Shown: one piece after another, positions 45,083-47,570 of the stretch | Numbering within the stretch: position 1 is the stretch's first letter | Layout of the letters: every line of letters begins with the position of its first letter | Sequence record: MT129652.1 | Direction: 5' to 3' (one strand) | Length of the DNA: 64,000 nucleotides | From: Escherichia phage MN01 | Program-made: the position numbers and the translations under genes | The notes under the pieces: model-generated | What the model was told of the DNA's origin: nothing | The model's input: the letters and a program-made list of their open reading frames with translations, nothing else | Databases searched by the model: none

Positions 45083-45643
45083 ATGATTATTGAAACAACT
45101 GAATTGTTTGGCGAACTGACCGCTGAAGTAGTTAATAATGCAATTGAGCTTTGTCAAGAAGACGATAAAATCGTACTGACTATCCAAGATATTAAACCAC
45201 TTTATGATTTAAAGGTTTTGGATAAAGATGAATATCTTAGCGGTAGTTTTAGTGGTGTATTTGATATTAACGATGATGTATGTGCTCGCATTTATAAGAA
45301 CGATGGCGGGTTTAATATTGAAACAGATGAAAAATGCCTGAGCATTAGTAATTCTGATAAATTCTTTAAATGTATTTTCAAACTGTTCCAGGAAGAATGC
45401 AAGCCAGAAGTCGAATGGAAAGTCCCTGGACAAGATGCACTGATTCGCTCTAGTGAAACCTTTGACGGTGACGAAGAGGAATTGAATTATAATACCGAAC
45501 TGACTGTTGTTCAACATGACGGTCGTGACCAACTATGTATTACCCAAGTACACGATGGTTTTAATGAAGTGGTATTTACTAAAGACGAGCTAAAAGTTTT
45601 AGTCTCTTATCTGAACTCTGTTATCCCAACTATGAACTCTTAA
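45083..45643 (+). CDS. hypothetical protein
   Basis: 186 aa acidic ORF. Confidence 0.5.
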   Translation: MIIETTELFGELTAEVVNNAIELCQEDDKIVLTIQDIKPLYDLKVLDKDEYLSGSFSGVFDINDDVCARIYKNDGGFNIETDEKCLSISNSDKFFKCIFKLFQEECKPEVEWKVPGQDALIRSSETFDGDEEELNYNTELTVVQHDGRDQLCITQVHDGFNEVVFTKDELKVLVSYLNSVIPTMNS

Positions 45644-45653
45644 GGAAAATATT

Positions 45654-46106
45654 ATGATTATCAATTCAAACTCTTGGCACGTTAAATTACACGACCGTTT
45701 TTATGACCGTCATTCTCGACCACACTCTTTGTGTGCTTATTTCTGGAAAATGATTTGGGCTTGTTTTGCTTGTGCTATTGTTGCAGGTAGTACGCTTTTT
45801 GGATTAACTGTTGCAGGCGCTGGTGTATTAGAACATTTCTTTGTATTAAGTACTCCTGTTCTGTTGAGTCTAGGGTTTGTTTTAGGGTTGGCTGCAATAG
45901 CTCTTATTATTGCGCTATCCATTGGTTTGGCATTAGGTGCGATGAATTTACACGCATGGTATGATGCACGTATAGAAGAAAAGGAATGGCAACGTATTCA
46001 AGCTGAGCGGGAAGGCCGAGAAATTAAAGAAAATATCGTTATTCAATACATTAAAGCTCGTAAATCTAAGATGTGCCCGGTAATCCATTTTGAGGCGAAG
46101 AAATGA
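45654..46106 (+). CDS. membrane protein, hypothetical
   Basis: 150 aa; two or three transmembrane segments. Confidence 0.5.
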   Translation: MIINSNSWHVKLHDRFYDRHSRPHSLCAYFWKMIWACFACAIVAGSTLFGLTVAGAGVLEHFFVLSTPVLLSLGFVLGLAAIALIIALSIGLALGAMNLHAWYDARIEEKEWQRIQAEREGREIKENIVIQYIKARKSKMCPVIHFEAKK

Positions 46107-47113
46107 GAACAGTTATGAAAGGCTACTTCGGTAGCCATCTTTATGGGACAAGTACTCCGGAATCTGATGTCGATTTTAAAGAAATCTTTGTTCCTCATCC
46201 GCGAGATATCCTGCTCGGAACCGCGATGAACCATACCAACCTGAACACAAATAACACGGCTACCAAAAATACAAAAGATGATGTTGACCATGAACTTTAT
46301 AGCCTGAAATATTTCTTTAAACTGGCAGCCGAAGGTGAAACCGTTGCCCTGGATATGATTCACACACCGGCTGACCTGGTAGTCAAATCCGATTTACCAG
46401 ATGTATGGAAGTTTATTCAAGACAACCGTTCGCGGTTCTATACAACTAACATGAAAGCCTATTTGGGGTATGTCCGTAAGCAAGCTTCCAAATATGGTGT
46501 TAAAGGTTCTCGATTGGCTGCACTGCGTGGTGTACTGGCAATCGTTAACCAGATTCCTGAACAGTGGGTCGACTATCAAGAAGGAATCCCTGATAAACTT
46601 CGTCGTACTAAGGTAGAAGATATCAAACATCGACTTCCTGAAAACGAGTTCTGTGAATGGGTATTCCATAACCATGAGAAAACAGGTCCTCAAACGTTCT
46701 ATACTGTCCTCGGACGTAAGTACCAAACTACTCTGTCATTGGTCGAGCTTAAGCAATCTCTGAATAAACTTGATGCCGAATATGGCGAACGTGCTCGTAA
46801 GGCTGAAGCTAATGAAGGTATTGACTGGAAAGCACTGAGCCATGCATATCGTGCAGGGTATCAATTGATGGAAATCTACCAAACAGGTGACTTGGTATTC
46901 CCATTGCGTGAAGCCTCTATCATTAAGCTGATTAAAGCTGGTGAATTACCATTTAAAGAAGTTCAAGAACTTCTTGAAGATACTGTCGATTTAGTTGAAG
47001 TTCTGGCCATCCAGGCTGCTAAGAATGGTATGCCTGCGAAGGTGGACATGAAGTTCTGGGACAAGTTTGTTGAAGAGGTATACCTTGACAACCACAATTC
47101 CTATTATCGTTAA
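46103..47113 (+). CDS. pol-beta superfamily nucleotidyltransferase, hypothetical
   Basis: N-terminal GSHLYGTSTPESDVDF is the canonical hG[GS]x9-13Dh[DE]h nucleotidyltransferase signature; 336 aa with helical C-terminal domain. Confidence 0.6.
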   Translation: MRTVMKGYFGSHLYGTSTPESDVDFKEIFVPHPRDILLGTAMNHTNLNTNNTATKNTKDDVDHELYSLKYFFKLAAEGETVALDMIHTPADLVVKSDLPDVWKFIQDNRSRFYTTNMKAYLGYVRKQASKYGVKGSRLAALRGVLAIVNQIPEQWVDYQEGIPDKLRRTKVEDIKHRLPENEFCEWVFHNHEKTGPQTFYTVLGRKYQTTLSLVELKQSLNKLDAEYGERARKAEANEGIDWKALSHAYRAGYQLMEIYQTGDLVFPLREASIIKLIKAGELPFKEVQELLEDTVDLVEVLAIQAAKNGMPAKVDMKFWDKFVEEVYLDNHNSYYR

Positions 47114-47308
47114 CAAAGAAATCAAGGTCTTCTTATCATACGGAAGACCTCATAAAGGCCGCCGATGGTATCTCGAAGCAGTCTGTCGAGAAACTGGTCG
47201 TCGAATCAATATCAAGTACACATGCAAACCAACACCCAAGCAAACTCGCAGGTTTGCTAATTGGGCTATCAATAATATCAGATTCCATAATTTTTGGAGT
47301 GCAATCTA

Positions 47309-47335
47309 AGGACCCTTCGGGGTCCTTTTTTATTT
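47309..47335 (+). terminator. rho-independent terminator
   Basis: AAGGACCC-TTCG-GGGTCCTT plus T-run. Confidence 0.65.
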
Positions 47336-47393
47336 TAAAGGTGTACAAACTTGTCTCTGTTGATGCATAATGAATTTTTACTAAGGAGCCATT

Positions 47394-47570
47394 ATGAATC
47401 ATATGAGACCTCGCGTATCCAAACAAACGCGAGAAGAAGCGATTGAACATTTTAAACGCCATCATGGAAGTCAATCATGCGAGGTGATTGTTGGTATCGA
47501 CATAGAAAAGATGAAGGAAACTGCCAAGCACTACCAGGGCAGGATTGATATTAAAAATTATATAAAGTAG
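47394..47570 (+). CDS. small basic protein, hypothetical (58 aa, below ORF-track cutoff)
   Basis: ATG preceded by AAGGAG Shine-Dalgarno and GTGTAC..CATAAT promoter; read by eye. Confidence 0.4.
   Translation: MNHMRPRVSKQTREEAIEHFKRHHGSQSCEVIVGIDIEKMKETAKHYQGRIDIKNYIK

Follow-up and report, generated by a model that had tools for sequence, protein, structure and literature searches.

Escherichia phage MN01 encodes, in the 64,000-nucleotide stretch of sequence record MT129652.1 analysed here (the window), a 336-residue protein. An original prediction, made from the letters alone, had described it as a Pol-beta-type nucleotidyltransferase followed by a structured region without a clean open reading frame (ORF). 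We found that this protein is the ortholog of T4 NrdC.11 and a member of the RlaP family, and the gene is in this sense largely already known. The locus probably closes an early operon of a T4-type phage (Tevenvirinae), in which a membrane protein gene, nrdC.11 and a gene for a small basic protein are followed by a terminator. Repair of RNA ends is the best-supported function of NrdC.11, and we think it likely, judging from the biochemistry of the family and the operon context of its own clade; for phage and long-form RlaPs, activity on RNA ends is a prediction. NrdC.11 is among the long-unassigned conserved genes of T4-type phages. The idea that it rebuilds RNA ends has already been published as a prediction, and the family biochemistry is available in a preprint. 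The additions made here are small: a distinct long-form clade, with bacterial members in Pnkp/Hen1 and RtcB/Ro60 operons, often beside a short paralog, and a small basic-protein gene that is tightly coupled to nrdC.11 in many phages and often unannotated, and the recognition that labels such as "thioredoxin" for NrdC.11 in databases are wrong.

NrdC.11 is a member of the RlaP family

The 336-codon ORF exists as the original prediction stated, and the nucleotidyltransferase signature hG[GS]x9-13Dh[DE]h fits its amino-terminal region, where F9-G10-S11 is followed by ten residues and by D22-V-D24-F25. The protein matches PF10127 (RlaP) with 48.4 bits against a cut-off of 23 (expectation value E = 1.3e-12), over residues 8-135 only, and phrog_388 at E = 9e-131. 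Every homolog listed carries a precomputed PF10127 match. The sequence equals that of an Escherichia phage MN01 database protein (100% identity), and shares 81% identity with the T2/T4 cluster. The ortholog of Shigella phage SP18 is annotated nrdC.11 and lies in the same gene order, with a mobD.1-type gene and a membrane protein gene upstream and nrdC.9 and nrdC.8 downstream. Synteny of the region is shared with SP18, VR25 and T4. Both the high full-length identity and the position in the nrdC-tk early region thus identify the protein as the T4 ortholog.

At E ≤ 1e-3, a search among 1.84 billion cluster representatives returned 3212 relatives, of which 830 reached E ≤ 1e-30, most of them full length. 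Conservation was then read from an alignment of 96 sequences sharing 33-81% identity with the query. Ten positions are invariant: G10, S11, S21, D22, D24, Y131, K243, H247, R250 and P267. The presence among them of the glycine, the serine and both aspartates of the signature bears out the Pol-beta-type assignment. D60, D62 and D84 are each conserved in at least 90% of the sequences, and D60 lines up with the I-D-L strand of the canonical short RlaP. An acidic third ligand is therefore available, with three candidates for the residue whose loss, according to the original prediction, would have indicated an inactive fold.

The structure was modelled with AlphaFold2. A shallow alignment (65-96% identity) gave a poor nucleotidyltransferase domain, with a predicted local distance difference test score (pLDDT) of 69.5, and a diverse alignment was used instead, which led to a pLDDT of 94 and a predicted template-modelling score (pTM) of 0.83. 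The resulting model places the strands and helices of the nucleotidyltransferase domain at residues 2-95 and further helices between 99 and 307, in agreement with the helical domain proposed earlier, and it ends in a helix at 316-335. The segment from about residue 150 to 210 is predicted to be rich in beta structure. Comparison with predicted viral structures retrieved many nucleotidyltransferases of phages and giant viruses, with query-normalised TM-scores up to about 0.7. Neither the single protein nor the 96-sequence profile had more than chance-level sequence matches in the copy of the PDB used, which lacks PfRlaP, and Foldseek found nothing in the PDB below E 1e-3.

The beta-rich stretch (46550-46720, residues about 150-205) is the most variable part of NrdC.11 and looks mosaic across the T4-like clades. 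One protein, P0073, is of the window type at both ends and of the Klebsiella-phage type in the middle, a pattern that suggests intragenic recombination in nrdC.11. Many GenBank and UniRef entries for NrdC.11 bear the name "thioredoxin", and one is called "HNH homing endonuclease". Both labels are annotation errors that have been propagated, the thioredoxin one presumably from the gene name.

Predicted role of NrdC.11 in RNA-end repair

The original prediction had left the substrate open among several nucleotidyltransferase subfamilies. RlaP membership narrows this choice, the characterised members acting on RNA 3'-OH ends, which are the predicted substrate of NrdC.11 itself. Placement among the subfamilies, which had been proposed as a check, put RlaP above threshold and left the MntA, CD-NTase/defence and CCA-adding models unmatched. 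The MNT/MntA NCBIfam equivalog reached 15.8 bits against a cut-off of 60, and its match was the 18-residue motif alone. The PADLOC defence-system models likewise gave motif-level matches only, none at threshold, and neither defence or SMODS/OAS models nor structural neighbours indicated an enzyme of CD-NTase, cGAS or OAS type. The head-domain families of CCA-adding enzymes and poly(A) polymerases in Pfam were unmatched at E ≤ 0.1, a level at which only RlaP, DUF1409, NTP_transf_2 and PRESAN are listed.

RlaP has been predicted to put back nucleotides lost from cleaved RNA ahead of ligation (PMC7824862). A preprint of December 2025 reports that two Pseudomonas enzymes, PfRlaP and PaRlaP, label only RNA among E. 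coli macromolecules, and that they attach 1-2 nucleoside monophosphates or deoxynucleoside monophosphates to RNA 3'-OH ends while being inactive on 3'-phosphate ends and on DNA (PMC12776372). Both prefer Mn2+ or Co2+ as metal, act preferentially on the 5' half when given a mimic of cleaved tRNA and partly rescue the aminoacylation of a tRNA lacking one anticodon-loop nucleotide (PMC12776372). In the crystal structure of PfRlaP, nucleotidyltransferase and helical domains are joined by a terminal helix (PMC12776372). In the PF10127 similarity network of that study, T4 NrdC.11 is placed, as a protein of unknown function, in cluster 5, and the assayed enzymes in cluster 1a (PMC12776372).

The genomic neighbourhoods of prokaryotic relatives were scanned in one genome per species, from which the best 80 of 156 confirmed relatives were taken; genes at each locus were defined by ORF calling and clustering and then checked against Pfam. 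The 80 proteins are full-length long-form RlaPs, 34-52% identical to NrdC.11. RNA-repair genes lie within 5 kb at 13 of the 80 loci, and a tandem pair of long and short RlaP was also found at 13 of the 80. At the Nitrosospira locus (L064), genes for Ro60 (TROVE and vWA domains), RtcB and RtcA are followed by a long RlaP, a short RlaP (255 aa, PF10127 at 3e-51), Hen1 and an AAA ATPase. At the Asticcacaulis locus (L087), the gene for the kinase-phosphatase-ligase Pnkp is followed by those for a long and then a short RlaP. The bacterial long form is 40% identical to NrdC.11 over 330 residues (full-length range 35-41%). Because these members of the clade lie in repair operons, it is the NrdC.11 clade itself, beyond the Pfam family, that is tied to RNA repair.

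The long protein (about 310-330 aa) is encoded directly before the short paralog (about 255-277 aa) in L064 (5001-6743) and L087 (2338-6802), and the pair also occurs at L043, L044, L053, L065, L077, L086, L089, L107 and L108. Such tandem pairing suggests that the two forms are not redundant. In T4-like phages the long form occurs alone. In a metagenomic phage-like contig (L029, 6001-12969, and L030), an AcrVA2-like protein (PF26125) is encoded after an RlaP of 38% identity. A CCA-adding-type enzyme (PolyA_pol and HD domains) is found there about 5 kb downstream, a further instance of a tRNA-end repair theme.

Taken with the family biochemistry, this context leads to the following predicted mechanism. 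NrdC.11 would restore nucleotides trimmed from tRNA halves by RloC-type host anticodon nucleases, after which the phage polynucleotide kinase and RNA ligase 1, which need 3'-OH and 5'-phosphate ends, would reseal a functional tRNA. The 3'-OH that an RlaP product would carry is the end that the pseT and rnlA enzymes need. SP18 encodes both pseT (polynucleotide kinase) and rnlA (RNA ligase 1), about 88 kb from nrdC.11. Distant phage homologs are found in early-gene surroundings, with no consistent partner gene. If true, the rebuilding of RNA ends would complete the classic T4 tRNA repair by Pnk and Rnl1, directing it against nucleases that remove a nucleotide besides cutting.

Several observations weigh against repair of RNA ends. 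The characterised RlaP enzymes belong to a different cluster of the family, and the short bacterial form is just 25% identical to NrdC.11 over 118 residues. The local phage operon holds no RNA ligase gene. The block from nrdC.11 to mobD.3 is also lost from a viable genome-reduced T4 (PMC9825161), which fits an accessory, host-dependent role.

That NrdC.11 acts through this fold on something other than RNA is an unlikely alternative. It could, for instance, AMPylate a host protein such as a HEPN-type toxin or anticodon nuclease, as MntA does, synthesise an oligonucleotide signal in the manner of HalB, or modify a small molecule as does kanamycin nucleotidyltransferase. Hailong HalB and the kanamycin nucleotidyltransferase ANT(4') are 9-14% identical to NrdC.11 with Foldseek E values above 1e-3, and their substrates, dATP for oligomerisation and aminoglycosides respectively, are unlike that of RlaP. 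The MntA score far below its cut-off and the lack of any defence-system match argue against such uses, as does the sequence family, which is RlaP. Moreover, the assayed RlaPs left E. coli protein and DNA unlabelled, and the bacterial orthologs of the NrdC.11 clade lie in RNA-repair operons.

A conserved small gene between nrdC.11 and the terminator

The 190 nt between the nrdC.11 stop and the terminator had been described as a structured region without a clean ORF, in which the one frame present, rich in Arg, lacked its own start. We found a conserved coding gene in this place. Its frame lacks an ATG but includes an in-frame TTG at 47085, with a GAGG 6 nt upstream, and its product scores 34.3 bits for PF23945 (DUF7279; cut-off 24.5) and can be aligned to phrog_8921 over the full profile (E = 2.3e-39). 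Because of these Pfam and PHROG matches, the small frame is regarded as a conserved protein-coding gene and not as a spacer. By tblastn, the 62-residue core was detected in 211 phage records, at identities down to 42%, and a DUF7279 match lies directly 3' of nrdC.11 in all 12 records of relatives examined. Pairwise ratios of non-synonymous to synonymous substitution rates (dN/dS) are 0.06-0.12, and remain as low between genomes that lack the ATG (0.084 for the window and SP18, 0.055 for SP18 and dhabil). The alignment columns that never vary fall mostly at the first two positions of codons, and most differences are at the third. On these comparisons, the gene is under purifying selection.

The protein has an isoelectric point of about 11, and its core contains 14 basic and 2 acidic residues. 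The DUF7279 family is confined to T4-like phages; a literature search retrieved no paper that mentions it, and the family is without a published function. A match of the small protein to WYL was below threshold (E 0.024) and was dismissed. In four distant contigs, the genes 3' of RlaP are unrelated to DUF7279. The gene is unannotated in SP18, RZ, QL01, dhabil and other records.

The start codon was compared in 18 distinct related sequences. An ATG is present 5-11 nt after the nrdC.11 stop in 11 of them, while ATC or ATT occupies this position in 6, including the window, SP18, dhabil and Moon. In the Serratia phages 4S and 92A1, an ATG begins 24 nt ahead of the point where the nrdC.11 stop ends. 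All Tevenvirinae examples have an in-frame TTG 30-33 nt before the end of that stop, with GAGG or AAGG ahead of it. In every genome examined, the small gene either overlaps or directly adjoins the stop of nrdC.11. In MN01, the start is most likely a UUG at 47085 served by the GAGG, and/or an AUC at 47121 at which ribosomes terminating at 47111-47113 reinitiate. One fact counts against the UUG: the TTG and the GAGG are also fixed by the conserved carboxy terminus of NrdC.11 (E-E-V-Y-L-D), and because these codons encode it, their conservation proves no use in initiation.

The replacement of ATG by ATC could also mean that the gene is decaying into a pseudogene in this phage. ATC or ATT at this position in a third of the distinct relatives, the lack of annotation in several records, including SP18, RZ, QL01 and dhabil, and the complete absence of the gene from T4 would agree with decay. 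However, the frame is unbroken, purifying selection acts on it between the very genomes that carry ATC, the in-frame TTG with its GAGG is available, and the frame upstream of the ATC is open in 13 of 13 genomes. We consider decay highly unlikely.

The original prediction had further proposed an RNA element, and RNA structure was examined over the same interval. From 47114 to 47335 the sequence folds better than shuffled controls (z = -3.6, terminator included), with three hairpins. The terminator that had been noted is real: AAGGACCC-TTCG-GGGTCCTT at 47308-47327 forms an 8-bp stem with a UUCG loop, followed by a run of six T (-13.8 kcal/mol, z = -3.8). In QL01, IME281 and IME341 the stem changes from GGACCC/GGGTCC to GGAACC/GGTTCC, a compensatory replacement of a C-G by an A-T pair. 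A GC-rich stem-loop, a U-tract and a compensatory change together identify it as an intrinsic terminator. The stop codon of the small gene overlaps its stem.

The palindrome on which the RNA element had been based, GCAAACTCGCAGGTTTGC, is present at 47240-47257, and its stem extends to 8 bp (47239-47246 with 47251-47258; -8.8 kcal/mol). The window and VR25 alone carry it intact, and in SP18 it is weakened to a G-U pair. Synonymous and non-synonymous changes break it in dhabil, QL01 and all more distant relatives; 66.9% of cells are paired. Since it is lost in close relatives, and since its covariation does not exceed that of shuffled controls, we rejected the palindrome as an RNA element.

The start-proximal hairpin begins 2 nt after the ancestral start codon (47121-47123). 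Most genomes have a hairpin on G-R-P codons, and changes in IME523, CHI14 and EcS1 appear to compensate one another. For example, in EcS1 (L009, 1507-1535), compared with CHI14 (L008), GTC has become CTC (V to L) and CCC has become GCT (P to A); both residues change, yet a G-C pair is replaced by C-G and the pairing is kept. Compared with synonymous recodings, the hairpin has z = -1.8 in the window and -0.8 to -2.8 in 15 of 18 related sequences, with p < 0.05 in just 8 of the 18, which are related and hence non-independent. Covariation of this hairpin and of the palindrome was within controls, as the observed values were reached by 60-112 of 500 shuffles of the positional alignment. The start-proximal hairpin may be a translational-coupling element. 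A second hairpin, at about 47165-47195, was set aside, since the Klebsiella phages, judged by eye, are without it. A promoter-like site at 47110-47139 was judged to be due to chance, with 20 sites found against 13.7 ± 3.5 expected.

That the 190 nt are mainly a structured RNA element is, on these data, extremely unlikely. The folding score of the region with its three hairpins, and the somewhat greater stability of the 5' hairpin than of synonymous recodings, speak for it, but much of the z-score comes from the terminator, the palindrome is unconserved and covariation does not rise above controls. The Rfam search gave two matches only, at E about 0.9, both far under their gathering scores. In addition, conservation at first and second codon positions, with differences dominated by the third, is that of a coding sequence.

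The small ORF might instead be a carboxy-terminal extension of NrdC.11 made by +1 ribosomal frameshifting in the overlap. It lies in the +1 frame relative to nrdC.11 in 13 of 13 genomes, the frame being free of stop codons over the 31-64 nt (10-21 codons) that precede the end of nrdC.11, and a good Shine-Dalgarno site is absent before the ATG/ATC position. However, no slippery or shift-prone motif was recognised, and a fusion product was therefore rated unlikely. The conservation of the frame is weak evidence for frameshifting, because only about two independent indel events underlie it. Most relatives, moreover, have an ATG of their own, and the Serratia phages 4S and 92A1 a separate one. Such a fusion is scarcely credible.

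As the small gene lies so close to the nrdC.11 stop and would have a coupled start, its product is expected to be co-expressed with NrdC.11, possibly as an RNA-binding accessory. More speculatively, and with low probability, some of the T4-like phages could use NrdC.11 and this translationally coupled basic protein of 7-9 kDa as the two parts of a counter-defence module, the DUF7279 protein acting as an RNA(tRNA)-binding specificity subunit in the rebuilding of RloC-trimmed tRNA ends. The start-proximal hairpin and the non-AUG or reinitiation start would, as part of the same proposal, couple synthesis of the DUF7279 protein to translation of NrdC.11.

Gene order at the locus and comparison with known systems

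Over 2 kb, the region is 87.9% identical to that of SP18 and 93-95% identical to those of several Escherichia phages. Its features are collected in Table 1. As read from the sequence, a GAGG is located 8 nt 5' of the nrdC.11 ATG.

Table 1. Features at the nrdC.11 locus of Escherichia phage MN01 (positions in the window)
Feature	Position	Strand	Remarks
Membrane-protein gene, phrog_944 (E 1.7e-53)	45654..46106	+	TGA stop shares ATGA with the nrdC.11 ATG
nrdC.11 ortholog, long-form RlaP (PF10127), Pol-beta-fold nucleotidyltransferase	46103..47113	+	336 aa
Nucleotidyltransferase signature, codons G10-F25 (GSHLYGTSTPESDVDF)	46130..46177	+	
Shine-Dalgarno-like site GAGG	47075..47078	+	Inside nrdC.11 codons E-E-V, 6 nt 5' of TTG
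Small basic protein gene, DUF7279 / phrog_8921	47085..47309	+	74 aa from TTG
Core of the small gene	from 47121		62 aa; ATC here, ATG in 11/18 distinct relatives
Start-proximal hairpin, AGGTCTTCT-(8 nt)-GGAAGACCT	47125..47150	+	9 bp, -12.3 kcal/mol
Palindrome	47239..47258	+	Within small-gene codons K-Q-T-R-R-F-A
Intrinsic terminator	47308..47337	+	8-bp stem, UUCG loop and T-run

On a distant phage contig (L028, 7036-7479), a homolog of the phrog_944 membrane protein (28% identity, E 4e-14) adjoins an RlaP of 47% identity, in reversed order. The gene two upstream of nrdC.11 (45083-45643, plus strand) resembles T4 y05I/MobD.1, with matches to T4_y05I_N at E 1e-41 and to T4_y05I_C at E 7e-18. These Pfam domains are described as a putative transcription factor. 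On the 3' side of the terminator, a promoter-like site at 47342-47371 (TGTACA, 18 nt, CATAAT) precedes an AAGGAG ribosome-binding site and a 58-aa ORF at 47394-47570 (plus strand). The stretch 47342-47570 varies among close relatives, and RZ has there a 747-nt reverse-strand gene annotated "tail needle knob". Because its contents differ in this way, the stretch after the terminator appears to be an insertion hot spot.

The closest known system is that of T4. Its NrdC.11 (NP_049709) also has 336 residues, and the gene occupies the same place, with a mobD.1-type gene on one side and the nrdC.10/9/8 block on the other. The two loci differ on either side of nrdC.11. Upstream, the slot of the phrog_944 membrane protein is filled in T4 by the mobD homing endonuclease. 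Downstream, T4 is without the DUF7279 gene, and a similar TTCG-loop hairpin with a T-run begins 2 nt after the nrdC.11 stop. Compared with other members of DUF7279/phrog_8921, the small gene of MN01 has ATC in place of the ATG that is the usual start of the family.

The bacterial long-form RlaPs belong to the same subfamily as NrdC.11, with which they align over the full length. They differ in context, since they are embedded in RNA-repair operons, often with the short paralog next to them, whereas the phage has the long form only, followed by DUF7279. PfRlaP and PaRlaP share with the phage protein the Pfam family, the GS...DxD active-site motif, with candidates for the third Asp, and, in the predicted model, the order of domains, as well as the predicted role of adding nucleotides to an RNA 3'-OH before ligation. 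In contrast to these cluster 1a enzymes, the phage protein belongs to cluster 5, is longer than the 249-position Pfam model and has the predicted beta-rich stretch at about residues 150-210, and its gene is without an adjacent RtcB gene.

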